64,000 bases of DNA from the NCBI GenBank assembly GCA_963833485.1, contig CAWHXT010000005.1, positions 21,330 to 85,329 of the forward strand. The letters are read 5' to 3'. Below the pieces are notes generated by a model. It did no database searches. It saw only the letters and a program-made list of their open reading frames with translations, and was not told the DNA's origin. Shown one piece after another: positions 11,573-59,275 of the stretch. The DNA comes from an uncultured Candidatus Micrarchaeota archaeon (GTDB taxonomy: Archaea > Micrarchaeota > Micrarchaeia > Micrarchaeales > CABMGC01). Every line of letters starts with the position of its first letter. Position 1 is the first letter of the stretch. Both the position numbers and the translations under genes were made by a program.

Positions 11573-11638
11573 AATCACCCTTATTAAAAACAAGTAATAA
11601 GTATAGGTTTAATATACGAAAACATATAAAAAAGTGTT

Positions 11639-11713
11639 GGGCACGTGGCGCAACTTGGATGGCGCGACGGCTTGCGGAGCCGCTGGTTGCGGGTTCAAAT
11701 CCCGCCGTGCCCG
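11639..11713 (+). tRNA. tRNA-Arg (anticodon GCG)
   Basis: Manual cloverleaf: acceptor GGGCACG/CGTGCCC, D arm GCGC/GCGC, anticodon loop TTGCGGA, T arm GCGGG-TTCAAAT-CCCGC. No encoded CCA. Confidence 0.9.
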
Positions 11714-11719
11714 AATAGG

Positions 11720-18178: not shown

Positions 18179-18250
18179 GCCTCAGTAGCTCAGTGGTAGA
18201 GCGTCTGCATGGTAAGCAGAAGGCCGCGAGTTCAATTCTCGCCTGAGGCT
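18179..18250 (+). tRNA. tRNA-Thr (anticodon GGT)
   Basis: Acceptor GCCTCAG/CTGAGGC, D arm GCTC/GAGC, anticodon arm TCTGC-ATGGTAA-GCAGA, T arm GCGAG-TTCAATT-CTCGC. Confidence 0.9.
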
Positions 18251-23272: not shown

Positions 23273-23343
23273 GGGCTCGTGGTCCAGCGGTAAGACGCCA
23301 CTTTCACAGAGTGGAGAGCGGAGTTCGACTCTCCGCGGGCCCA
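23273..23343 (+). tRNA. tRNA-Val (anticodon CAC)
   Basis: Acceptor GGGCTCG/CGGGCCC (one G-U pair), anticodon arm CCACT-TTCACAG-AGTGG, T arm CGGAG-TTCGACT-CTCCG. Confidence 0.9.
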
Positions 23344-30714: not shown

Positions 30715-32661
30715 TCAGCTTATTTTATTCATTATAGCTCTTGCGAGTACGAATAGGTTAAGTGGGAGGGTAGAAAGGCTTTGAATTTGTGCGTTTACGT
30801 TAGGGGCGTTCTGCGAATTTATGCTAGGAACTTGTGGTGGGACGGTCGTAGTAGGAGAGCCGGTTATTGAATAAGTAGCGTTAGTCATATTGAAAAGTGC
30901 TCCAACTGATTTTCCTGTTGACGAATCTGTGATATTAAGGTACCATGGTCCTGGGGAGATGTTGGACTCGGTTTGGAATGTACCAGAGACGTATCCATAT
31001 GCGTCGGAGAAGGAATCTGGAGTGAAAGTTATTGTGTTGTTGTTCTTAACATTGATCAAAGACAGCACTGCACTAGAATATGGAGAAACACAGGCCTCCC
31101 ACGAGAGATAGCTCCCAATTTCGTAGCCACCATCGACTCCAGGTCCAACTGAAGTGATGTTCAGCCATGGAGGATTGCTGCACGCAAAACTGCTAGTGCT
31201 GCTTTGTGGAAGTACTATCTTTGAAGGCACGCGGCCAGTGTTGTGATTCCTTCCTAGAGGAGCCTCTGTTAATACATAGCCATCAAAGTTTGCCATTTCT
31301 TCAGAATGGTTCGCCCCGTTAGAGTAGTAGATCACCCAAAGGTCATAATTCTTATAAGATCCTATTTTGGTACTACTATTCACAGGACAGTTGAAGAATA
31401 GTTGCAAGTTATTAGTGCCTCTATGTAAAGATATGTTGACAGCTGTGAAGTTGTTTGCTGAAGGGTAGCCAGTGTAAGAGTAGGTGTAATATGCAAATGG
31501 AGAGATGCACGCCAGGCCGTATATGCTGTCTCCGTTTTTCAGGTTGCCAAAGCTGAAGTTTGCCCTGAGAGTTCCTGTAAGGTTTAACATAGGACGTGAG
31601 CAGTAGCTATAGTTCGTTTCCAAGTTTGGTATTCCTGAGATGTAATATGAACCGCAATAGCTTGGAAGAAGAGCGCTCAAATTAAGAAGGGGTCCTGGAA
31701 GAGCAGTAATTTCACTATCCGGCAATGGCTGCGAGCTTAGGGAAGTTTCATTGATTATAGTATTAAAGGATGTTTTGTTTTGACCAACTGAGATTGTGAT
31801 ATTAGAAGTTGAGGTAAGAAGTACGTTGTTATAAAGGTTTGAGAAACAGCCAGAAAACTTTCCTCCTATATTGAATCCCTTTGGACCATAATAGTAATAA
31901 TCTGAAGTAATGTTTACTATGGAGTTTATCGGTATGTACCCGCTTAGATTGCCTTTCACCAGGACGCATGGAGAACCCTTGTATGCGCTTTCAGAGACAG
32001 AACTGATTGTAAGGTTGATATCCTTCAATATTGTACTGTTCGAGAAATTTGAAGTATACTTGTATGGATTCAGCCCACTGCTGTACGAAGATGTTGCATT
32101 TCCATATACTCCAAGTGTTTTGTTATCAATGCAGCCAACGCTGCTCATGTTTTGCTGCGTTGTAGAAGAAGCAGCATTAGAGAACATCCCTAACAGGCCT
32201 TCAGACGCACCACCATTTTGAAACAGGTCGCTGCAAACATAACTAATTGAGTTGTTCCTTATATCTGTGAAATTGATGTTCAATGAATAGCTGAAGCTAG
32301 AAAGCTGCAGGTTTATTGTCGTCCCAAAGAATGTCCTAGAAACATTACCATTCTTATCTAGACTTACATTGAAAGGTATGCTTAGCTTAAAGGAGGTTAT
32401 GCCGCTTTTTATGTCTAAGTTTGAGTTGCCGCTGTAATTAACAAAGATCTGTTTTGTTGGATTTTGTTTGCTCTGCTGTGCGATTAGATTAATTAAAGTT
32501 GCAAGATTCAGCTGCTTGTGCGTTAGTAGATATTTAAAGAGCACATTTTGAGAAGCGGGTTGATATAGAAAGAAGTAAAGTGCAGCAATGATTATCAAAG
32601 CAATAGCGATTGTTGCAATTTTTATCTTTGTAGGGATCATGCAACAGCCAAATAAAAACAA
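30715..32661 (-). CDS. Large secreted or surface protein, Asn/Ser/Thr-rich with many N-x-S/T sequons and an N-terminal TM anchor
   Basis: N-terminal hydrophobic segment 'IATIAIALIIIAALYFFL'. Dozens of N-x-S/T sequons. Paralogous to the product of 44999-46423. Confidence 0.6.
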   Translation of the reverse strand: MFLFGCCMIPTKIKIATIAIALIIIAALYFFLYQPASQNVLFKYLLTHKQLNLATLINLIAQQSKQNPTKQIFVNYSGNSNLDIKSGITSFKLSIPFNVSLDKNGNVSRTFFGTTINLQLSSFSYSLNINFTDIRNNSISYVCSDLFQNGGASEGLLGMFSNAASSTTQQNMSSVGCIDNKTLGVYGNATSSYSSGLNPYKYTSNFSNSTILKDINLTISSVSESAYKGSPCVLVKGNLSGYIPINSIVNITSDYYYYGPKGFNIGGKFSGCFSNLYNNVLLTSTSNITISVGQNKTSFNTIINETSLSSQPLPDSEITALPGPLLNLSALLPSYCGSYYISGIPNLETNYSYCSRPMLNLTGTLRANFSFGNLKNGDSIYGLACISPFAYYTYSYTGYPSANNFTAVNISLHRGTNNLQLFFNCPVNSSTKIGSYKNYDLWVIYYSNGANHSEEMANFDGYVLTEAPLGRNHNTGRVPSKIVLPQSSTSSFACSNPPWLNITSVGPGVDGGYEIGSYLSWEACVSPYSSAVLSLINVKNNNTITFTPDSFSDAYGYVSGTFQTESNISPGPWYLNITDSSTGKSVGALFNMTNATYSITGSPTTTVPPQVPSINSQNAPNVNAQIQSLSTLPLNLFVLARAIMNKIS

Positions 32662-34550: not shown

Positions 34551-35624
34551 TTGCTGAGCGAAGTCTTTAGGGGCACGGTCAACTACCTTCAAGTGATGAA
34601 TGAAAGAGGAGAGATTGACTCTTCCGTTTTTCCGAACGACCTGAAAGACGATAAGATAGTTGACATGTACAAGATGATGTGTTTCGCCAGGGCCTTTGAT
34701 GCAAAGGCGTTAAGCCTCCAGAGGCAGGGAAGGACTGCGACTTACGGGCCGCTGGTAGGAGAGGAGGCGACGCAGATAGGAGTGGCAAAAGCGATGAGAG
34801 ATAATGATTTCTTCGTTCCGAACTTCAGACAGCACGGAGTATTCCTAGCAAGGGGTATGCCAATAGATAGGATAGTACTCTATTGGAAAGGCTACGAAGA
34901 GGGAAACATGATCCCGAAGGAAGTGCATGGTTTTCCAGTCATCGTTCCTGTCGCTTCACAGGTACCTCATGCAGCAGGAATAGCTTTCGCTGAAAAACAT
35001 AAGAATACGGGAAATGCGGTTGTGGCCTTCGTTGGTGATGGAGGAACATCTGAAGGAGACTTCTACGAGGCGATGAACTTCGCAGGTGTTTTCAGGCTGC
35101 CTCTTGTGATAATAGTAGAGAACAACCAATGGGCGATATCAGTACCTAGAAAGAATCAGAGCGCAGCACAGACTCTTGCCCAGAAGGGCATCGCCGCTGG
35201 GATAAATGTAATTCAGGTTGATGGAAACGATGTGATTGCTGTTTACAAGGCAACAAGCGACGCCATTGCTAATTCTGCGAACGGACCAATGTTGATAGAA
35301 TGTGTGACATACAGGATGGGCATGCACACGACCGCAGACGATCCGACAAAGTACAGGAGCGATGCGGAGGTTGACGCTTGGAAGATAAAGGATCCGATAG
35401 CCAGGACAAGAGCATACCTGATGAAAAAGGGGTTATGGAACGATCAGTTGGAGAGCCAGATGCAAGCTGAGCAGCTCAAGCTTATAGACGAAGGCGTGGA
35501 GAAGGCAGAGCAGTTCAAGCCAGATCCTACCAGCATGTTCAAGAACATGTACAGCTTCATGCCGCAGGTGCTGCAGGACGAGCTTGACGACAATGTGAAA
35601 AACAACTGGTACATGGAGGAATGA
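34551..35624 (+). CDS. 2-oxoacid dehydrogenase E1 component, alpha subunit
   Basis: TPP-binding 'GDGGTSEGDFYEAMNFA...ENNQWAIS' and 'YRMGMHTTADDPTKYR'. Confidence 0.9.
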   Translation: MLSEVFRGTVNYLQVMNERGEIDSSVFPNDLKDDKIVDMYKMMCFARAFDAKALSLQRQGRTATYGPLVGEEATQIGVAKAMRDNDFFVPNFRQHGVFLARGMPIDRIVLYWKGYEEGNMIPKEVHGFPVIVPVASQVPHAAGIAFAEKHKNTGNAVVAFVGDGGTSEGDFYEAMNFAGVFRLPLVIIVENNQWAISVPRKNQSAAQTLAQKGIAAGINVIQVDGNDVIAVYKATSDAIANSANGPMLIECVTYRMGMHTTADDPTKYRSDAEVDAWKIKDPIARTRAYLMKKGLWNDQLESQMQAEQLKLIDEGVEKAEQFKPDPTSMFKNMYSFMPQVLQDELDDNVKNNWYMEE

Positions 35625-35628
35625 TTAT

Positions 35629-36594
35629 ATGATGGCAAACATGGTTACCGCGCTTAACAACGCAATGGACTTGCTGCTAAAAGAGAATGAGGATGTCATC
35701 ATTTTCGGCGAGGATGTTGGAAAGGACGGCGGTGTTTTCAGAGTTACAGATGGTTTACAAGCTAAGTATGGTGAGGAAAGGGTTTTTGACACGCCGCTTG
35801 CGGAGTCGGTCATAGCTGGCGCTACCATAGGAATGGCGCTAAGGGGATTGAGACCGATCGCTGAGATGCAGTTCGCCGGCTTCATGCTCATGGCTTTTGA
35901 CCAGATAGTTAACCATGCTGCAAGGTACAGGAGCAGAACCAGATCTACTTACACGCTGCCGATGATTATCAGAACGCCAGTGAGTGGGGGAGTTAGGACC
36001 TTGGAGCACCACTCAGAAAGCCCAGAGGCGCTTTATTCGCACGTCGGAGGGTTACTAGTTGTAGAACCTTCGAACCCTTATGATGCGAAGGGCTTGCTGA
36101 TAAAAGCATCGCATATGGACGACCCTGTGATTTTCCTTGAGCCAACAAAGCTTTACAGGCTGTTCAAGCAAGAGGTTCCTGAAGATATGTACGAAGTTGA
36201 GATAGGGAAGGCGAACCTTGTTAGCGAAGGAGACAAGCTCACGGTGGTGACATACGGGACAATGGTTCCAATAGTGAAAGATGTAATAAGCAAGAAGAAC
36301 ATATCCGCGGACATTATTGACCTGCGCACGATAAACCCTCTTGATGAGAAGACAGTAATTGACAGCGTAAAGAAAACTGGAAGGGTAGTGATAGTGCACG
36401 AAGCTGAGTTAAGCTTCGGCGCGGGAGCGGAGATCGCGGCAAGGATAGCGGAGAAGGCGATATTTGACCTTGACGCTCCTGTTGTGAGGGTTGCAAGTGA
36501 CAGCTTCCCGTATCCGATGCCAGGATACGAACAGTGGTACATACCAAATGCTGTTAAAGTTTCAAAAGCGATAGATAAAGTTATGTCAGAGTGA
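35629..36594 (+). CDS. 2-oxoacid dehydrogenase E1 component, beta subunit
   Basis: 'FGEDVGKDGGVFRVT', 'RVFDTPLAE' and 'EMQFAGF' are typical E1-beta motifs. Confidence 0.9.
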   Translation: MMANMVTALNNAMDLLLKENEDVIIFGEDVGKDGGVFRVTDGLQAKYGEERVFDTPLAESVIAGATIGMALRGLRPIAEMQFAGFMLMAFDQIVNHAARYRSRTRSTYTLPMIIRTPVSGGVRTLEHHSESPEALYSHVGGLLVVEPSNPYDAKGLLIKASHMDDPVIFLEPTKLYRLFKQEVPEDMYEVEIGKANLVSEGDKLTVVTYGTMVPIVKDVISKKNISADIIDLRTINPLDEKTVIDSVKKTGRVVIVHEAELSFGAGAEIAARIAEKAIFDLDAPVVRVASDSFPYPMPGYEQWYIPNAVKVSKAIDKVMSE

Positions 36595-36598
36595 AAAG

Positions 36599-37819
36599 AT
36601 GAAGGAGATCAAGTTTGTTGATGTGGGAGAAGGGATCACCGAAGGTCACATACAAAAGTACCTGGTGAATGATGGAGACATGGTTAACGAGGACCAGCCG
36701 GTAGTGCAAGTTGAAACTGATAAGGCAGTGGTTAACGCACCTGCGCCAATCAGCGGAAAGATAAAGTTCGTAGCTAAGGAGAACAGCGACGTCAAAGTTG
36801 GAGATACCATAGCAATCATAGGAACCGATGCTGAGCTTAGCGGGACTCCCGCACCAGTGTCAACCGAACCGAAAGTTACAGTAAGAAAGGAGGAGCCGAA
36901 GCCGCAGCCTGCCCCGCAGACACAACCAAAAGAGGTGCTGGCAACACCCGCAGTAAGAAAGCTTGCGAGAGACCTTGGGGTTGACATAAAAAAGATTGTT
37001 GGAACAGGTCCTGACGGCAAGGTACTAGAGAATGATATCAGATCGATGGCTCAGCAAAGCGCTAACCAGTCAAAGCCTGTCCCGAAGTTCTCAGAAGTTT
37101 TAGAGCAACAGCATGGTGAGGAGGTCGAGCGAATTCCAATGTCTATGACAAGGAAAGCTATAGCAAGGAACATGGAGGCTTCCTGGACTATACCTAGAGC
37201 TACAAGCATGGAGCTTGTTGATGCTGATGCGCTTTATGCGATTGTAGAGAAGGAGAAGCCAAACGTTCTGAAACAGTTCAACGTGAAGCTAACTCTGCTT
37301 CCTTACATAATAAAGGCAGTTGTCCAGACGCTTAAAGAGAATCCTTACTTCAACGCAAGCTACGACCACGAGACACTCGAGATAATAGTCAAGAAGTATT
37401 ACAACATAGGCATTGGAGCAGAGGCACCAGACGGCCTGAAGGTTGCGGTCGTCAAGGGAGCGGACAAGATGAGCATCGTAGACATCGCAAAGGCGATACA
37501 CGACCTTGGTGAGAAGGTAAGAAACCAGACGATAAGCCTTGATGAGATGAGGGACAGCACATTTACGATAACGAACATAGGCAGCCTGGGCGGAGGTTTT
37601 GAGGCTGTGCCGATGATAAATTATCCAGAGGTTGCAATACTCGGGGTTCTGATGCTCAGGGACATGCCAGTAGTGAAAGATGGAAAGATAGTTGTTGGTA
37701 AGGTGCTTCCAATATCGCTCGTGTTTGACCATAGAGTTGTCGACGGTGCGGAAGCTGTTAAGTTCACAAATGCGCTGAAGAAGTACCTTGAGGACCCAGA
37801 CTTTCTTGAGATGCTTTAA
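36599..37819 (+). CDS. Dihydrolipoamide acyltransferase (E2)
   Basis: Lipoyl domain 'VETDKAVV', subunit-binding domain 'ATPAVRKLARDLGVD', catalytic 'SLVFDHRVVDGAEA'. Confidence 0.9.
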   Translation: MKEIKFVDVGEGITEGHIQKYLVNDGDMVNEDQPVVQVETDKAVVNAPAPISGKIKFVAKENSDVKVGDTIAIIGTDAELSGTPAPVSTEPKVTVRKEEPKPQPAPQTQPKEVLATPAVRKLARDLGVDIKKIVGTGPDGKVLENDIRSMAQQSANQSKPVPKFSEVLEQQHGEEVERIPMSMTRKAIARNMEASWTIPRATSMELVDADALYAIVEKEKPNVLKQFNVKLTLLPYIIKAVVQTLKENPYFNASYDHETLEIIVKKYYNIGIGAEAPDGLKVAVVKGADKMSIVDIAKAIHDLGEKVRNQTISLDEMRDSTFTITNIGSLGGGFEAVPMINYPEVAILGVLMLRDMPVVKDGKIVVGKVLPISLVFDHRVVDGAEAVKFTNALKKYLEDPDFLEML

Positions 37820-38289
37820 TGGATGATGATTGGAAGAAAGAAGCACGCGAAAACGTATTGAAAATAATAAAAACCAGCCATTATCTGGTTTTGGCTACAG
37901 CGGACAAGAATGGAACCCCTTGGTCTGCACCGTTGCATTACGCATTTGATCAAGATTTCAACTTCTACTTTGATTCAGATGAGAAGTCCCTTCACGTACA
38001 GCAGATGAAAAGTAACCCGAAGGTCGCCATCTCTATCGTGGAGGAGACCACACCAGCAGGGGAGGGAGCGGGAGCGCAAATAAGCGGCGTAGCCGAGGAG
38101 ATGCCAGAATCTTCTGTGACCAAGGCAGAAACCATATTGTACAGCCGCATTCATCCAGGCTCGAGTAAAACAACGGGGGAGATTCACTCTCACTACTCAA
38201 AAAAGGGCGCTAAGGTTTATAAAATTCACACATTACATGTTTACACTAAACCTTATGGTCACGAAAGGATTGAGGTTTATTTAAAGTGA
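37819..38289 (+). CDS. Pyridoxamine-5'-phosphate-oxidase-like FMN-binding (split-barrel) protein
   Basis: 'YLVLATADKNGTPWSAPLHYAFD' and 'SNPKVAISI' are typical of the PNPOx/GSP26-like family. ATGA-type overlap with E2. Confidence 0.6.
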   Translation: MDDDWKKEARENVLKIIKTSHYLVLATADKNGTPWSAPLHYAFDQDFNFYFDSDEKSLHVQQMKSNPKVAISIVEETTPAGEGAGAQISGVAEEMPESSVTKAETILYSRIHPGSSKTTGEIHSHYSKKGAKVYKIHTLHVYTKPYGHERIEVYLK

Positions 38290-38293
38290 TACA

Positions 38294-38437
38294 ATGGCAA
38301 ATCAAGGAGCTGGAGGAGGTTGTGAATGTGGTGGAAGGTGCAAATGCGGGGATAAGGGAGACTGCATGTGCACAAGGAAGAACTGCGATTGCGGATGCAC
38401 TTGTGGAGAGAGAAGAAAGACGAGAGGAAAAATGTAG
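38294..38437 (+). CDS. Cys-rich metallothionein-like peptide (47 aa)
   Basis: 'MANQGAGGGCECGGRCKCGDKGDCMCTRKNCDCGCTCGERRKTRGKM' has 10 Cys, all within five CxC units. Starts 5 nt after the preceding stop. Not in the ORF track (<60 aa). Confidence 0.5.
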   Translation: MANQGAGGGCECGGRCKCGDKGDCMCTRKNCDCGCTCGERRKTRGKM

Positions 38438-38521
38438 ATAGAGATTGTCAAATTTTTGATAAAAACAAAACTTTAACAATCCTTTTAAATAGAGAAAGCA
38501 CTAATATATTGGAGGAAAGAT

Positions 38522-38886
38522 ATGCCAGCCATAGGAACAATAGGAGAAATAGGAAATACAGGCTCGATCTCTCAGGAAGTTAAAGACAAACTGAGGGGCA
38601 CCTTTCTAAGGCACATGCCTGACGCCGGAGAAGCGATCCAGAAGGTGTACGACCCAGAAGTATGGGCAGCTGTTTGGGTCCGCTTGAACAGCAGATCAGA
38701 GACGGCAAAATGGAAATCGGAGAGGGGAGCTCGAAGGTAATCTACTCAGTGCCTAAACTGGTAGAGCTTGCGCACACGCACAGAGGCAAAGACTTTGCAG
38801 AGTTCTGGGACATACTCAGGAACGGCAAAGTAGAGAGACAAAGCCTTGGAAGCATAATAAAATCAGTCTTAGGGAAGCTTAGGTAA
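38522..38886 (+). CDS. Hypothetical protein, possibly one gene split by a 1-nt deletion
   Basis: Two overlapping ORFs (38522-38740 and 38662-38886) lie in frames differing by -1. 'ggagg' precedes the first ATG. 365 nt, i.e. 366-1. No motif. Confidence 0.3.
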
Positions 38887-38987: not shown

Positions 38988-40365
38988 ATGGTAATGGGCT
39001 CTCTTCCAGAACAAGTCGATCTTGCAGTCATAGGAGGAGGGGTCGGAGGTTACGTTGCTGCCATAAGGGCGGCGCAGCTGGGTCTCAGCGTCACGCTCGT
39101 TGAGAAAGAAAAGCTAGGAGGGCACTGCCTGAACTACGCTTGCATACCTTCAAAGACACTCATCAAGGTCTCTGACATATTCTATGAGGCACAGCATTCG
39201 CAGAAGTTTGGCATAAACGTGCAGGGAGCCAGCCTGGATGCCAAGAAGATGCTTGAATGGAGGATGTCTGTTTCGAAGAGGCTTGAGGATGGGGTGGCTT
39301 TCCTCTGCAAGTCTAATGAGATAGAGGTGCTTAAAGGAGCAGCAACCTTCCTTTCACAGAGTACATTGCAGCTGACGGATGGGGTGTCGCTAGAATTTAA
39401 GAATGCCATAATAGCAACCGGCTCAGAGCCTACCGGTACTAAAGGGATTTGAGTTCGGAGGCAATATAATTGATTACAAGCAGGCGCTGATGCTCGATCA
39501 CATACCAAAATCTATCGCCATAATCGGCGCCGGATACGTTGCTGTTGAGATAGGGACGCTGTATGCAAAGCTCGGAACTAAGGTTTCCATAATCGCAAGG
39601 TCAGACGTGCTCTCGCGCTTCGATAGGGACGCAGTTACGCTGATAAAAAGGAAGATGCAGGAACTTGGAGTAAAGATATACACAGATACTTCACCAGTTG
39701 GGCATGATGCAAGCAGTGTCACGCTCAATTCTGGAGAGAAGGTTGATGCTGAATTGATAGTTGTCGCTGTCGGCCTCACTCCTTACATCGATGGTCTGGG
39801 GCTAGAAAATACAAAGATTGAGAGCGACGATAAAGGTTTCATAAAGGTAGACAGTTCGATGCGAACTAAAGAACCGAACATATTTGCAGTTGGTGATGTA
39901 GTTGGAGAACCGCTGCTTGCGCACAAGGCAATGAGGCAGGGGGTTGTATCCGCAGAGGCTGCTGCGGGAAAGAACTCTTCGTACGACAATCTCGTAGTGC
40001 CTGCAGTCATATTCTCTGACCCTGAAATAGCAATTGCTGGGGTTGTAGAAGAGGGAAATGGCATAAGAGTTACGAAGTTCCCGTTGAGCGCCTTGGGCAG
40101 GGCGGTAGCTTTAGATACCACCAACGGCTTCGTGAAGATAGCATACGACGAACAGCAAGTGGTAAAGGGAGTCGAGATAGTATCTGACGAAGCGAGTTCC
40201 ATGATATCTGAAGCCGCGCTTGCAATAGAAATGGGGGCGACATTGGAAGACATAGCATCTACAATACATCCACATCCAACTTACAGTGAGGCAATACAGG
40301 AAGCGGCGGAGGCCGCGCTTGGCAGGCCGATTCATTTCTTCTACGGCAAACAGAGCAAACAGTGA
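38988..40365 (+). pseudogene. lpdA: Dihydrolipoamide dehydrogenase (E3), frame disrupted as read
   Basis: 'GGGVGGYVAAIRAAQLG' and the redox centre 'GGHCLNYACIPSK'. A +1 shift at about 39435 gives '...IATGSEPT|VLKGFEFGGNIIDY...PKSIAIIGAGYVAVE'. 1378 nt, i.e. 1377+1. Confidence 0.85.
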
Positions 40366-40369
40366 GCAA

Positions 40370-41098
40370 ATGGATTACGAGACGGACTTTGACGACGGGT
40401 ATGCTGGCACTTCAGTTGGAAAGATATACTATAGACACCATAAAGGAGAGGGAGAAAAGCTGATTTTATTACATGGCCTTGGGGCTAACGCAAGATCATG
40501 GAAGAACCTGATGTTCTTCATGCCAGACACTCTAGATATCTACTTGATAGACTTATTGGGGCACGGGAACTCTGACAAACCGAAGATTGACTACACGATA
40601 AGCATGCAGGTGCAGATGCTGAGAGAGTTCATAGCTCTTAACAACAACGGCGACAGTTATCTCATGGGACATTCGTACGGTGCGTGGATATGCGCCTATT
40701 ACGCTTCGCAACCGTATTCGGCGAAGGGCTTAATACTGGAAGATGCTGCTGGCCTGAAATTATTCTTCGATGATCTGCAGATATCTGGAACGCTTCAACA
40801 GGAGAAAGAAGAGGTGCTGAAACAAACGCTCCAAATGAATGGCAACGAGAAATACGTGATACAGAGCGCTCTTGACAACAGGAACGAATTTCTTGATGAG
40901 ACTAATTTATCAAAAATAACGCAGAAGACTCTGGTACTGTGGGGCAGCGACGACAGTACGCTGAACGTGAAGTATGCTGAGGAGTTCAAGAAACAGATAC
41001 CAAACTCAGATCTGCAGTACATAGAAGGTGGGGGGCATACGCCACACTTCACTCGCCCAAAGCAGGTATCTGAGAAGATAATTAATTTTATAGGTTGA
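40370..41098 (+). CDS. Alpha/beta-fold hydrolase
   Basis: 'LILLHGLGAN' and nucleophile elbow 'GHSYGAW', with C-terminal 'GGGHTPH'. Start at the ATG at 40370, just after the lpdA stop. Confidence 0.75.
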   Translation: MDYETDFDDGYAGTSVGKIYYRHHKGEGEKLILLHGLGANARSWKNLMFFMPDTLDIYLIDLLGHGNSDKPKIDYTISMQVQMLREFIALNNNGDSYLMGHSYGAWICAYYASQPYSAKGLILEDAAGLKLFFDDLQISGTLQQEKEEVLKQTLQMNGNEKYVIQSALDNRNEFLDETNLSKITQKTLVLWGSDDSTLNVKYAEEFKKQIPNSDLQYIEGGGHTPHFTRPKQVSEKIINFIG

Positions 41099-41516
41099 TA
41101 GAACGGGGGCTGAACAAAATATAGTCAGGGCTGGGGCATCCGCGCTGATTGAAGATGGAGATGGTAAATTTTTAGTAGGTAAGAGGGCTGTATGGCCTGT
41201 TGGTATGTGGACCTTCCCTGGCGGGGGGATTGAATTTGGAGAGAGCTCTGACCATGCGGTTGTGAGGGAGACAAAGGAGGAGACAGGACTTGAGATAACG
41301 CCTACGAAACTGATCAAGGTGCACGAGATGATAGTTCCGGAGAACAAGGTGCACAGGATAATCTTCTTTTATCTTGCAAAGGTTGTGGGAGGAGAGCTTA
41401 AGACCACCGAAGAGATCAGCGAGTGGCGTTGGATGACCCCGGACGACATCGCCAAGCTTGACAACCTTGGCCATTCAGTGATTGAGATAATGAGAGAGGC
41501 GAAGCTGATTAAGTAG
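41095..41516 (+). CDS. Nudix hydrolase (5' end uncertain)
   Basis: Nudix box 'GGGIEFGESSDHAVVRETKEETGL'. Homologous N-terminal sequence ('IVRAGASALIEDGDGKFLVGKR') lies upstream of the first in-frame ATG (41205). TTG at 41095 is reachable only with a 1-nt correction near the A-run at 41116-41119. Confidence 0.65.
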
Positions 41517-41519
41517 GGT

Positions 41520-41810
41520 TTGAAAATGGAGGGATCTGCGAGCCAGAAAGTTCCTGGGGGCAAGATGCTTATTGTAAAGGTAAATTTTGAACAAAAGATA
41601 AACGCGGTTCAGATCACTGGGGACTTTTTCCTTTATCCTGAAGATTCGCTGGATAAGATCGAGGGGGCTCTTATTGGATTGGACATAAACGATAGTCTAG
41701 AAAAAATAAGGGGAAGAGTCGATGACGTTGTAAAGAAGAACAGAATAGAGATGATAGGAATTAATCCAGAAGCTATAGCCCAGACTATCAAGATGGCGGT
41801 GAAGAGATGA
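41520..41810 (+). CDS. Lipoate-protein ligase accessory (C-terminal) domain protein, LplB-like
   Basis: 'KVPGGKMLIVKV.......VQITGDFFLYPED' matches the LplA C-terminal domain. It is encoded separately, as in Thermoplasma. Confidence 0.7.
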   Translation: MKMEGSASQKVPGGKMLIVKVNFEQKINAVQITGDFFLYPEDSLDKIEGALIGLDINDSLEKIRGRVDDVVKKNRIEMIGINPEAIAQTIKMAVKR

Positions 41811-42553
41811 GGTGGAGGATAATACCATTAGAGACGCATGACGCGTACCTCAACATGGCGATAGACGAGGCAATAGGGGATTATGTATCAAATGGTGAGT
41901 CCCCTCCAACAATCAGATTTTACACCTGGAAGCCGAGCGCGATCTCGATAGGGCATTTCCAATCGATGAGAGATGAGGTAAACATTGAAAAGTGCAAGGA
42001 GCTAGGTGTGGATTTTGTGCGTAGAAAGACAGGTGGGGGAGCGGTATATCACGACGAGCACGGAGAGATAACTTACAGTCTCATCGCACCGGAGAATCTC
42101 ATGCCAAAGGGGATAATCGACAGCTACAAGTTGATATGTGGGTGGGTGATAGATGGCTTGAATAACTTGGGAATCAAAGCGAGCTTCGCGCCGATAAATG
42201 ACATACTTGTAAATGGGAAGAAGATATCTGGGAATGCGCAGACCAGAAGAAACAAGATACTTCTTCAGCATGGCACCGTCCTTTATGACCTTGATGTTAA
42301 GAAGATGTTCTCCCTGCTGAAGATAAGCAACGAAAAAATCTCTGACAAGATGATAAAGAGCGTTGGTGATAGGGTGACAAGGGTGCTTGATTACACCAAA
42401 GTTTCTCAGGAAGAGCTGTACAACGCACTGCTAGAAGGATTTACAAAAGGGAAGGAGTATGATTTTGGAAAGATTAGCGAAGAAGAATCAAAGAAAGCGA
42501 GAGATTTGGTCGATAGCGTCTACAAAGCGGACGAATGGAACTTCATGAGATAG
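41807..42553 (+). CDS. lplA: Lipoate-protein ligase A, catalytic domain
   Basis: 'RRKTGGGAVYHD' and 'GKKISGNAQ', with an overall BPL/LplA fold pattern. Confidence 0.9.
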   Translation: MRWRIIPLETHDAYLNMAIDEAIGDYVSNGESPPTIRFYTWKPSAISIGHFQSMRDEVNIEKCKELGVDFVRRKTGGGAVYHDEHGEITYSLIAPENLMPKGIIDSYKLICGWVIDGLNNLGIKASFAPINDILVNGKKISGNAQTRRNKILLQHGTVLYDLDVKKMFSLLKISNEKISDKMIKSVGDRVTRVLDYTKVSQEELYNALLEGFTKGKEYDFGKISEEESKKARDLVDSVYKADEWNFMR

Positions 42554-43424
42554 TTATCTCTCTTTTTTAATTATGGCCTTGATGAAATGCTCTCCGGCTC
42601 TGTATGAACTCCTGACAAACGGGCCGGCTGCAACATAAAGGAATCCCATCTCAAGCGCTTTCTGTTTGTAATGCTCGAACTTTTGAGGGCTTACATACTC
42701 TTTTACTTCCGCGTGATGCTCGCTTGGCTTAAGATACTGGCCTATTGCAAGAAAATCAACGTTCACGCTTCTCAGGTCTCGCATCGCTTGAAGCACCTCC
42801 TCTTCGCTTTCTCCTAGTCCAAGCATCATTGCAGATTTCGTATATCTGGACGGGTCGATTTTCTTGACGTTAGCAAGCACATCAAGCGACTGTCTGTACT
42901 TCGCCCTCTTATCCCTTATCTTGTCGCTAAGTATCTCGACAGTTTCAATGTTGTGACCAACTACATCAGGTTTTGCATCGACTACTGTTTTTTAAGCAAC
43001 CGAAGTCTCCGCGGAAATCAGGTATAAGAACTTCAACAAGAGTCTGTGGGTTTTCTTTCTTTATTTCTCTTATGCAGTTAGCAAAATGTGTTGAGCCCTG
43101 GTCTTGCATGTCGTCCCTGCATACTGATGTAATCACTACATAAGGAAGCTTCCACTGCTTCAGGACTTGTGCAAGTTTGTAAGGCTCAAATATATCGATA
43201 CTTTCCCCTTTCGCGCTCTTCGTAACTGCACAGAACCTGCAGCCTCTAGTACATTTCTCCCCGAGAACCATGAAGGTCGCAGTTCCGGAGCTCCAGCATT
43301 CCGCCATGTTAGGGCAGTGCGCCTCTGCGCACACCGTATGAAGCTTTAGGGATGCTATTGTCTGTTTTATTTCAGAGTATTTTTCAGTTGAAGCTGGCTG
43401 TATTGTAAGCCATTCTGGTTTCAT
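42554..43424 (-). pseudogene. lipA: Lipoyl synthase, frame disrupted as read
   Basis: Radical-SAM 'CTRGCRFC' plus 'CEAHCPN'-type cluster 'CAEAHCPNMAEC'. A +1 shift falls in the A6 run (T6 at 42988-42993 on +): '...IPDFRGDFGCLK|TVVDAKPDVVGHNIETV...'. 871 nt, i.e. 870+1. Confidence 0.85.
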
Positions 43425-56252: not shown

Positions 56253-56617
56253 TTATAATGAATAAGAAGCCTCATCCAAAGTTCGTTGTGCCTGGGTACA
56301 GGTCAAAGGGCAGCAAGGGAGTCCCGCACAGGTGGAGGAAGCAGAGGGGCACGGACAACAAGAAGAGGATTGCAAGAAGTGGATACGGCGCGACGCCACA
56401 CATAGGATACAAGGCTAGCGCGGATATGAGATACAAGAGGCCTGACGGAAAGCTGGAGGTGCTGGTCCACAACGAGAGTGAGATGATGAGTCTTGCCGCA
56501 GATCCTGAAAACGTGGTCGCGATGATAGCGCACGACGTGTCTGTCAGGAAGAGGATTGCAATGCAGGGAATAGCAGACAAATATAAGTTGAAGGTTGCAA
56601 ACAGGGTGAAGAAATGA
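56249..56617 (+). CDS. rpl32e: 50S ribosomal protein L32e (eL32)
   Basis: 'HRWRKQRGTDNKKR....GYG..P.IGY' is typical of eL32, and the operon position fits. Confidence 0.85.
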   Translation: MIIMNKKPHPKFVVPGYRSKGSKGVPHRWRKQRGTDNKKRIARSGYGATPHIGYKASADMRYKRPDGKLEVLVHNESEMMSLAADPENVVAMIAHDVSVRKRIAMQGIADKYKLKVANRVKK

Positions 56618-57108: not shown

Positions 57109-57701
57109 TGTTCATGGCAAGGAAAAGCATTATAGAGCTGAAGTTCAGGAGAAGGAGAGAGGCCAAGACAAACTACCACAAGAGGCTTGCCCTTGTCAAG
57201 GGGGGGATACCTAGGGTGGTGGTGAGGAAGAGCAACAGGAAAGTACTTGGGCAGATAATAAGCTACAACGAGAAGGGAGACGTGGTCTCGTGCAGTGCCA
57301 ACTCCGACGAGCTGGAGGCTTTTGGATGGCACAGCAGAGGCAACCGCGCGACCGCATACCTCACAGGAATGCTGCTGGCGAGCAAGGTTGACGTTAAAGA
57401 GAGGGGAAATGAGCATGTATTAGACACCGGGTTGGGGTCACCAGTCAAGGATTCGGTGCCTTTTGTATTCGCAAAGGGCTGTGTGGACAACGGGCTGAAG
57501 ATCAGGGGTAAGTTCGAGATTGACGAGAATGTTTACAACTTCACAAACGTAGCAAAGCACGCTGAACAGCTCAAAAAGGAGAATGAGGGAGCCTACAACA
57601 GACAGTTTGGAGGTTATGTGAAGGAGAATGCTGCTCCGGAGGCCATGCCGAAGCTGTTTGCTGATGTAAAGCAGAAGATAATGGCGAAGAAGGGCAAGTG
57701 A
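57105..57701 (+). CDS. rpl18: 50S ribosomal protein L18 (uL18)
   Basis: 'FRRRREAKTNYHKRLALV', 'RVVVRKSNRKVLGQII' and 'ATAYLTGMLLA'. Confidence 0.85.
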   Translation: MMFMARKSIIELKFRRRREAKTNYHKRLALVKGGIPRVVVRKSNRKVLGQIISYNEKGDVVSCSANSDELEAFGWHSRGNRATAYLTGMLLASKVDVKERGNEHVLDTGLGSPVKDSVPFVFAKGCVDNGLKIRGKFEIDENVYNFTNVAKHAEQLKKENEGAYNRQFGGYVKENAAPEAMPKLFADVKQKIMAKKGK

Positions 57702-59159: not shown

Positions 59160-59275
59160 GTCAAACGGCCATAGGGACGGGGAAACGCCCGAACACATTC
59201 CGAACTCGGAAGCTAAGCCTGTCCACGATGCGAAATACTACTCAACAGAGTGGGAAAGCGCATTGTCGTTTGGCA
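59160..59275 (+). rRNA. rrf: 5S ribosomal RNA
   Basis: Terminal helix gtcaaac/gtttggc and the conserved core 'ccgaacacattccgaactcggaagctaagcc'. No 16S or 23S gene is adjacent. Confidence 0.85.

Follow-up and report, generated by a model that had tools for sequence, protein, structure and literature searches.

Metallothioneins (MTs), a polyphyletic class of proteins, have been described in eukaryotes and in a small number of bacterial groups. For Archaea, a review of metal resistance states that "MTs are absent in archaea" (PMC3600143), cadmium chelation in Thermococcus gammatolerans "seems not to be performed by metallothioneins" (PMC3407056), and an engineering review mentions metallothioneins in archaea in passing, with no examples (PMC6215804). 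Here we describe a short open reading frame (ORF) at positions 38294-38437 on the forward strand of a 64,000-nt stretch of contig CAWHXT010000005.1, from an uncultured Candidatus Micrarchaeota archaeon; the whole stretch is called the window below. An initial annotation, made from the letters alone, had picked out this ORF as encoding an unannotated peptide with the composition of a metallothionein. We conclude that it is almost certainly a functional protein-coding gene under strong purifying selection, and that its product, as predicted from its sequence, probably works as a metallothionein-like metal-cluster protein. It would represent a new family, unrelated in sequence to the others, within the polyphyletic class and in a domain with no characterised member. 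Across the ~8.3 million full texts covered by our literature search, neither the phrase "archaeal metallothionein" nor the family motif GCECGG occurs.

The nearest functional analogues appear to be the single-domain copper and cadmium thioneins of fungi and invertebrates, rich in C-x-C (CxC) pairs, and the mycobacterial protein MymT. The former include the Neurospora-type metallothionein, Drosophila Mtn (the Pfam family Metallothio_5) and the beta-domains of snails and crustaceans. Like them, the window peptide falls in the range of 25-60 residues, has more than 20% Cys, mostly as CxC with Gly, Lys and Ser spacers, and lacks a hydrophobic core; their fold depends wholly on the metal-thiolate cluster, and we propose the same for the window peptide. 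Unlike them, the family described here is archaeal, with a signature of its own (MANQG...CECGG...CGCTC(A/G)ER) and a variable charged tail. The small ORF for MymT, a copper metallothionein of Mycobacterium tuberculosis, was at first left without annotation; its product has a mass of ~4.9 kDa and a predicted capacity of as many as six Cu(I) (PMC7558416). MymT and the window peptide share their size, their richness in Cys, a prokaryotic and lineage-restricted distribution and a history of being overlooked as small ORFs. However, MymT is copper-induced and needed for copper resistance, whereas no metal genes lie near the Micrarchaeota peptide.

Three further systems invite comparison. SmtA combines a zinc-finger-like fold with a Zn4Cys9His2 cluster; its ligands include His, and it contains aromatic residues. 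Proteins of the SmtA/BmtA type (PF02069) are prokaryotic and cytosolic, and sequester multiple Zn or Cd ions (PMC7558416; PMC12193353). The window peptide, unlike these, has no His, no aromatic residue and no match to PF02069. The alpha-domain of metallothionein binds four metal ions (PMC3600143); the vertebrate form resembles most members of the Micrarchaeota family in holding 11 Cys within ~30 residues, but it uses CC and CxxC besides CxC, belongs to a two-domain protein and has no sequence relation to them. Finally, the C(P)XCG zinc-finger micro-proteins of Haloferax volcanii are archaeal proteins of <70 aa with Cys metal sites that gene callers often miss (PMC11241148). These have two to four CPxCG knuckles, a single Zn and a zinc-ribbon fold. 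The Micrarchaeota family, unlike them, has 10-11 Cys and no CxxC, which would imply a polynuclear cluster; a zinc-ribbon or C(P)XCG protein should show at least two CxxC knuckles, and the motif occurs in no member.

The window ORF starts with ATG and translates, over 47 codons followed by TAG, to MANQGAGGGCECGGRCKCGDKGDCMCTRKNCDCGCTCGERRKTRGKM. Translation and composition bear out the count given by the initial annotation, namely ten Cys in 47 residues, arranged as five CxC units, with no aromatic residue. Cys makes up 21.3% of the chain, at positions 10, 12, 16, 18, 24, 26, 31, 33, 35 and 37, and the pair 33/35 adds a sixth, overlapping CxC. There is no Phe, Trp or Tyr, no His, and no Ile, Leu or Val; 11 residues (23%) are Gly, the mass is 4.9 kDa and a signal peptide is absent. 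Among the 377 ORFs of ≥40 aa in the six frames of the window, this one has the highest Cys fraction, and its six CxC matches (overlaps counted) compare with two in the next best; the mean Cys content of the long ORFs in the window is 1.0%. The Cys and CxC richness of the peptide is far beyond chance.

Similar CxC peptides were then sought in related genomes, as the initial annotation had proposed. A word-indexed protein search returned a 51-aa relative (P0001) at 70% identity. When 1.84 billion cluster representatives were scanned exhaustively with HMMER, four further clusters were added, the representatives of which all bear the family's own signature. After profile searches and DNA-level scans of genomes and metagenomes, the family comprises 21 distinct proteins, with 27 loci outside the window (designated here by L numbers), at which the homologues show 54-74% identity. 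There is one copy per locus. From a collection of 5.8 billion protein clusters only eight clusters of the family were recovered, all source-named ones being hypothetical; one database member is titled "hypothetical protein [Candidatus Micrarchaeota archaeon]". A profile built from the 21 sequences retrieved no further proteins from the word-indexed database, so the family seems small and mostly uncalled. All organism-titled matches are metagenome-assembled genomes (MAGs) of Candidatus Micrarchaeota, and no members outside this phylum came within reach of the pattern-seeded scans, which can miss divergent ones. As found so far, then, the family appears to be restricted to the Micrarchaeota. Isolate prefixes of the matching MAGs, such as FK and YF, look like those of Chinese acid-mine-drainage sites.

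The pattern of conservation is that of a protein-coding gene. In DNA alignments, similarity begins exactly at the ATG and fades past the ER(R/K) motif, and the flanks are unrelated. In close pairs of loci, the ratios of synonymous to non-synonymous changes are 4:0, 3:0, 5:0, 1:0 and 2:0, with 14:2 for L001 versus L007; in distant pairs, synonymous divergence (pS) is 0.45-1.2, which is saturated, against a non-synonymous divergence (pN) of 0.10-0.24. Where the synonymous rate could be estimated, the ratio of non-synonymous to synonymous rates (dN/dS) is 0.02-0.34. The peptide frame (+1) is the only one free of stops in all 19 loci examined, which range from 31 to 57% in guanine-plus-cytosine (GC) content, and among the 41 core codons the third position is variable in 39, the first in 17 and the second in 15. 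The initial annotation had named a frame that is not conserved in relatives as evidence that would speak against the gene; the relatives showed the opposite.

These data bear on the possibility that the ORF is a chance frame or a non-coding element. It is very short, has no obvious Shine-Dalgarno sequence before its ATG, and an exact-sequence lookup found no entry for it as a called gene, which fits its being missed by gene callers and agrees with the earlier remark that a size-filtered ORF call overlooks it. The RNA folding z-score of the region is -1.9, a mild and unremarkable value. Against this stand the codon-level pattern of conservation and the 21 distinct protein variants, which keep an invariant Cys skeleton in genomes of 31-57% GC, and Rfam has no match in the region. 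We count a chance or non-coding origin as refuted, with a negligible residual probability, so far as sequence evidence can do so. A structured RNA is likewise without support, given the lack of an Rfam match and the modest folding score. Two antisense ORFs (38246-38479 and 38302-38451) and a +2-frame ORF (38286-38441) at the same place are not open in the homologues and were rejected.

An alignment of the members gives the consensus M-A-N-Q-G-A-G-x-G-C-E-C-G-G-x-C-x-C-G-C-x3-C-x-C-x3-C-x-C-G-C-T-C-(A/G)-E-R-(R/K), followed by a variable charged tail, which can be either basic or acidic depending on the member. All 21 distinct members, the window peptide included, share ten Cys and three Gly without exception. 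Measured from the conserved start, the relatives are 38-60 aa long (some database entries run to 76-90 aa, called from upstream starts), the family's Cys content is 21-26%, and the spacings between Cys are 1, 3, 1, 1, 3, 1, 3, 1, 1 and 1. The relatives contain zero to three aromatic residues, most of which fall at spacer position 21 or within the variable tail. In the window, the N-terminal motif M-A-N-Q-G-A-G-G-G is encoded at 38294..38320 (+) and the Cys-rich core, C-E-C-G-G-x-C-x-C-G-(C/D/H)-x3-C-x-C-x3-4-C-x-C-G-C-T-C, at 38321..38404 (+; codons 10-37), which is the predicted metal-thiolate cluster region. The N-terminal motif is nearly invariant in the main clade, and the third positions of its codons vary, which indicates that conservation acts on the protein; divergent members have a Lys/Ala-rich stretch instead.

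Most relatives have 11 Cys and the window peptide ten. The difference lies at position 20, which is Cys in 19 of the 21 members, Asp in the window (codon GAT, 38351..38353, +) and His in L028. Asp and His are alternative metal-ligand residues, so in sequence terms every member keeps a ligand-type residue there. The window peptide and L028 also have in common a four-residue spacer before Cys31, where the others have three; thus, the ten-Cys form looks like a sub-type and not like damage. The most divergent members, L027 and L028, keep the Cys register and have lost the MANQG and ER motifs, a course of change that is typically seen in metallothionein families and, by that analogy, would fit one here.

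How does the peptide compare with metallothioneins as a class? Operationally, the class is defined in sequence by low mass (<~10 kDa), a very high Cys content in CxC, CC or CxxC arrangements, and few or no aromatic and His residues, and in biochemistry by the binding of several metal ions in metal-thiolate clusters and by expression that responds to metal or a part in metal tolerance. The window peptide has all of the sequence properties, with 47 aa and 4.9 kDa, 21.3% Cys against a background of 1.0%, and neither aromatic residues nor His. For metal binding the hints are indirect, namely the invariant Cys skeleton, the exchange of Cys, Asp and His at position 20 and the missing hydrophobic core. 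The compositional part of the initial annotation's claim thus stood. By sequence, the peptide falls into no described metallothionein family. The only Pfam family to surface was Metallothio_5, far below threshold; it is itself a metallothionein family, which counts in favour of a metallothionein-like protein, and we read the likeness as compositional or convergent and not as homology.

We propose that this cytoplasmic 4.9-kDa peptide, of a previously undescribed family so far found only in Micrarchaeota, acts in the manner of a metallothionein with one domain. Without aliphatic or aromatic residues the chain lacks a hydrophobic core, so it should be unable to fold alone and would be organised only by its cysteines. 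An AlphaFold2 model from a nine-sequence alignment is of low confidence and almost without regular structure (mean predicted local distance difference test score 57, predicted template modelling score 0.35), as expected if the fold depends on metal. Ten to 11 cysteine thiolates, with Asp20 added in the window variant, would wrap one polynuclear metal-thiolate cluster. Fungal copper thioneins and the 11-Cys alpha-domain serve as the analogues for its load, which might be ~6-8 Cu(I) or ~3-4 Zn(II)/Cd(II); the four ions bound by the alpha-domain are the basis of the predicted M(II)4 stoichiometry. Such a peptide could buffer or sequester thiophilic metals (Zn, Cu, Cd) in the cytosol of archaea of acid waters. 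Its expression would be mostly constitutive, the gene lying at the 3' end of, or inside, housekeeping operons, as in the E1alpha-E1beta-E2-PNPOx unit of the window. In this scheme metal binding, stoichiometry, metal preference, co-transcription and physiological role are all inferred.

Several observations weigh against a metallothionein-like role. No described metallothionein family (the Pfam Metallothio_* families including PF02069, NCBIfam or PDB) reached its curated threshold: Metallothio_5 scored 10 bits against a cutoff of 25, with an E-value of at least 0.76, in four of 21 members; none of 13 members matched NCBIfam; and a profile search of PDB at E<=10 returned no metallothionein chain, its only match being a conotoxin (E=1.8). 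In bacteria, metals induce smtA and mymT, whereas in none of the ~14 genomic contexts of the peptide gene is there a metal-efflux pump, a metal sensor or another metal-resistance gene. A number of non-Cys residues (N3, Q4, E11, G13, G14, G19, G34, T36, E39 and R40) are unusually conserved, and could point to a specific partner or a structural role and not to generic buffering. The exact window peptide has no entry as a called gene, and no RNA runs with the window region were found; one DNA run (X1) with shared words yielded three short contig pieces, none of which covers the ORF. Lastly, this arrangement of Cys would also suit an Fe-S cluster or a function in redox chemistry alone.

The redox role can be put more fully as a thiol buffer or oxidant scavenger, an encoded substitute for low-molecular-weight thiols that cycles between thiol and disulfide without metal. 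A Cys content of 21% would serve such a function, and some loci place the gene beside E3 and other oxidoreductases that use flavin adenine dinucleotide (FAD) or nicotinamide adenine dinucleotide; in L013, an AhpC/redoxin-domain protein and a thioredoxin-DsbH-like protein are encoded upstream. However, the strict CxC register and the alternation of Cys, Asp and His at position 20 appear to fit coordination geometry better than disulfide chemistry, and most contexts contain no redox genes. On balance we consider metal-free redox buffering improbable.

The peptide gene was found in ~14 interpretable contexts, in ~10 of which it stands beside unrelated genes or alone. The order E2-peptide-E3 occurs in three lineages with saturated synonymous sites, represented by the window, L008 and L013-15; in L008 and L013-15 the peptide start overlaps or abuts the E2 stop. 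In L009 and L010, genes for aconitase (931 aa) and isocitrate dehydrogenase (341 aa) precede the peptide gene, with a 4-nt spacer (L009:2186-6144); this makes a second operon of central carbon metabolism with the small gene at its 3' end. In L019, E3 lies ~2.5 kb off on the other strand, and an amidohydrolase gene adjoins the peptide gene both there and in L025. Elsewhere the arrangements are various: HD hydrolase-peptide-MscL followed by ribosomal proteins L1, L10 and P1 in L001-L006; an HD gene upstream and an M16 peptidase gene downstream in L007; a stand-alone gene between tRNA synthetase and DUF87 genes in L016-18, with a TATA-like box ~25 nt before its ATG; methyltransferase-peptide in L020; peptide-deoxyhypusine synthase in L023 and L024; and LonB adjoining the peptide gene in L026. 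An ABC transporter is also among the unrelated neighbours.

In L001 the HD hydrolase and peptide genes overlap by 4 nt in different frames. In L007 the HD-domain (YfbR-like) hydrolase is in frame with the Cys-rich ORF and the intervening stop is absent, giving a 240-aa ORF (L007:4798-5520) that may be a natural fusion of hydrolase and peptide.

It is tempting to tie the peptide to the 2-oxoacid dehydrogenase complex, and the initial annotation had suggested a thiol-rich redox partner for the lipoamide and FAD enzymes encoded around it. A component of that complex should be located consistently with E1, E2 and E3, and the peptide gene is not, being found elsewhere in ~10 other lineages. The synteny asked about earlier is thus real in two other Micrarchaeota lineages, which keep the order E2-peptide-E3, and breaks down in the ~10 contexts with unrelated neighbours. 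Because these contexts are unrelated, and because the window peptide is intact while the window E3 is frameshifted, the sequence evidence does not support a dedicated role tied to the lipoamide/FAD enzymes.

A related possibility is that central-carbon enzymes sensitive to metals (lipoylated E2/E3, aconitase and isocitrate dehydrogenase) have in the peptide a dedicated guard or accessory, which would shield dihydrolipoyl dithiols and Fe-S clusters from Cu(I), As(III), Cd or Zn, or shuttle reducing equivalents to them. Among the main targets of copper and arsenite toxicity are lipoylated proteins and Fe-S dehydratases, and it is suggestive that the gene is enriched near such classic targets of thiophilic metals (lipoyl dithiols, Fe-S aconitase). 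The overlapping or near-abutting E2-peptide-E3 arrangement in three saturated lineages, the closely spaced aconitase-isocitrate dehydrogenase-peptide order in L009 and L010, the nearby E3 in L019 and the lipoate genes around the window locus, with parts of LplA and a LipA-like fragment, all speak for this view. However, enzymes of this kind are missing from ~10 of the 14 contexts, and a short gene lodged between E2 and E3 would travel with the operon whether or not it served the enzymes. The window itself suggests that the peptide was kept for other reasons, since its gene is intact where E3 is frameshifted and LipA looks truncated; with a PNPOx-like gene and a further ORF inserted next to the peptide gene, tight coupling was not preserved there. 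We therefore regard the guard role as unlikely. Its fullest version, in which this is the first archaeal metallothionein family, ancestrally placed inside operons of metal-vulnerable enzymes as a locally made guard against Cu(I), As(III) and Cd, seems doubtful as well. If it were true, it would be a prokaryotic counter-measure to the copper poisoning of lipoyl proteins that is known in eukaryotes as cuproptosis.

The contexts also bear on whether the peptide is a structural metal-cluster or Fe-S mini-protein, serving some conserved machine of the Micrarchaeota as a fixed subunit, chaperone or regulator and not as a buffer. This would account for the strong conservation of many non-Cys positions (MANQG, E11, GG, T36 and ER), and it would sit well with a single copy per locus, co-direction with housekeeping genes and the in-frame fusion to an HD-domain hydrolase in L007. 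However, no partner gene recurs across the contexts. The Cys are set in CxC motifs, unlike those of zinc ribbons with their CxxC knuckles and of ferredoxins with their CxxCxxC, Pfam, NCBIfam and PDB offer no match, and the divergent members retain only the Cys skeleton, as is typical of metallothioneins. We give this explanation a small probability.

A precursor of a ribosomally synthesised and post-translationally modified peptide (RiPP) could likewise be short and rich in Cys and Gly, and the conserved N-terminal stretch could be read as a leader. With its nine residues, however, that stretch is too short for known leaders. A maturation enzyme would be expected next to such a gene, and within the several kilobases scanned in each of the ~14 contexts there is no adjacent radical-SAM, YcaO, lanthipeptide-type or protease/exporter gene; a RiPP precursor is very improbable.

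If the metallothionein-like function is confirmed, a conserved family limited to one phylum of ultrasmall, genome-reduced archaea would fill the archaeal gap in the class, and would show how thiophilic metals are handled by organisms with ~1-Mb genomes and few efflux systems; the names of several member MAGs suggest an origin in acid mine drainage. A scaffold of only 38-50 residues would also be a minimal one for metal-cluster chemistry and for bioremediation. The case illustrates how size-filtered gene calling can hide functional micro-proteins.

Within the window, the peptide gene follows four co-directional genes on the forward strand (34551..38289), separated by gaps of no more than 4 nt and assigned from Pfam matches and coordinates: E1alpha (34551-35624), E1beta (35629-36594), E2 (36599-37819) and a PNPOx-like protein that binds flavin mononucleotide (37819-38289). 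The ORF had been placed 5 nt after the stop of the PNPOx-like gene; its ATG does begin at the fifth base, and the spacer itself is 4 nt. A T5 tract 16 nt past the peptide stop (38453-38457, +) looks like an archaeal oligo-T terminator. It is followed by a TATA-box-like element, TTTTAAATA (38483-38491, +), and by GGAGG (38511-38515, +) ahead of the ATG of the next ORF at 38522, which suggests that a new transcription unit begins past the peptide gene. From these three elements, all read from the sequence, we infer that the peptide is the last cistron of a polycistronic E1alpha-E1beta-E2-PNPOx unit, with which it is predicted to be co-transcribed.

The window E1alpha, E1beta, E2 and E3 are 64-76% identical to those of Micrarchaeota MAG REEA63 (L008), in the same order, which marks the window itself as Micrarchaeota DNA. 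The PNPOx-like gene stands between E2 and the peptide in the window lineage only; in L008 and L013-15, the peptide follows E2 directly. No close relative of the PNPOx-like neighbour turned up when this single protein was scanned against species-representative genomes. In L013, the region upstream of the 2-oxoacid dehydrogenase operon (L013:108-3658) encodes the thiol-redox pair mentioned above, a 500-aa protein with AhpC/redoxin and NHL domains and the 679-aa thioredoxin-DsbH-like protein; the pair is absent at the corresponding place in the window.

Downstream, the picture given by the initial annotation, of a peptide on the same strand as E1, E2 and E3, is right as to strand, but E3 is frameshifted and an extra frameshifted ORF lies between it and the peptide gene. 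Over its extent (38522-38886, ~120 aa) this ORF changes frame, with one part at 38522-38740 and the other at 38662-38886; it matches no Pfam family, and the syntenic loci L008 and L013 do not contain it. Dihydrolipoamide dehydrogenase (E3; 38988..40365, +; Pfam, tblastn) likewise occupies two frames, 38988-39452 and 39490-40365. When the E3 proteins of L008 (456 aa) and L013 (452 aa), both intact, are used as queries, tblastn aligns first frame +1 and then frame +2, placing the frameshift near 39430-39445, a site that is not in a homopolymer. The split may reflect an assembly error, decay into a pseudogene or a gene that is genuinely in two parts.

Beyond E3 lies a lipoate-related island (40286-43424) with an alpha/beta hydrolase, a NUDIX protein, lipoate-protein ligase and a LipA-like fragment. 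The NUDIX protein has 103 aa, against 142 aa for the ORF in L008. Lipoate-protein ligase (LplA) is in two parts, the C-terminal domain at 41520-41810 and the catalytic domain at 41807-42553, and the LipA-like fragment (152 aa, 42966-43424, -) looks truncated. Three other Cys-rich small ORFs of the window (32031-32165, 56253-56399 and 57211-57357) were dismissed, since each overlaps a longer opposite-strand ORF and the translations of two show no CxC pattern. The window also holds tRNA genes for Arg-GCG (11638-11714), Thr-GGT (18179-18250) and Val-CAC (23273-23343) and a 5S rRNA gene (59161-59274), all of them unremarkable.

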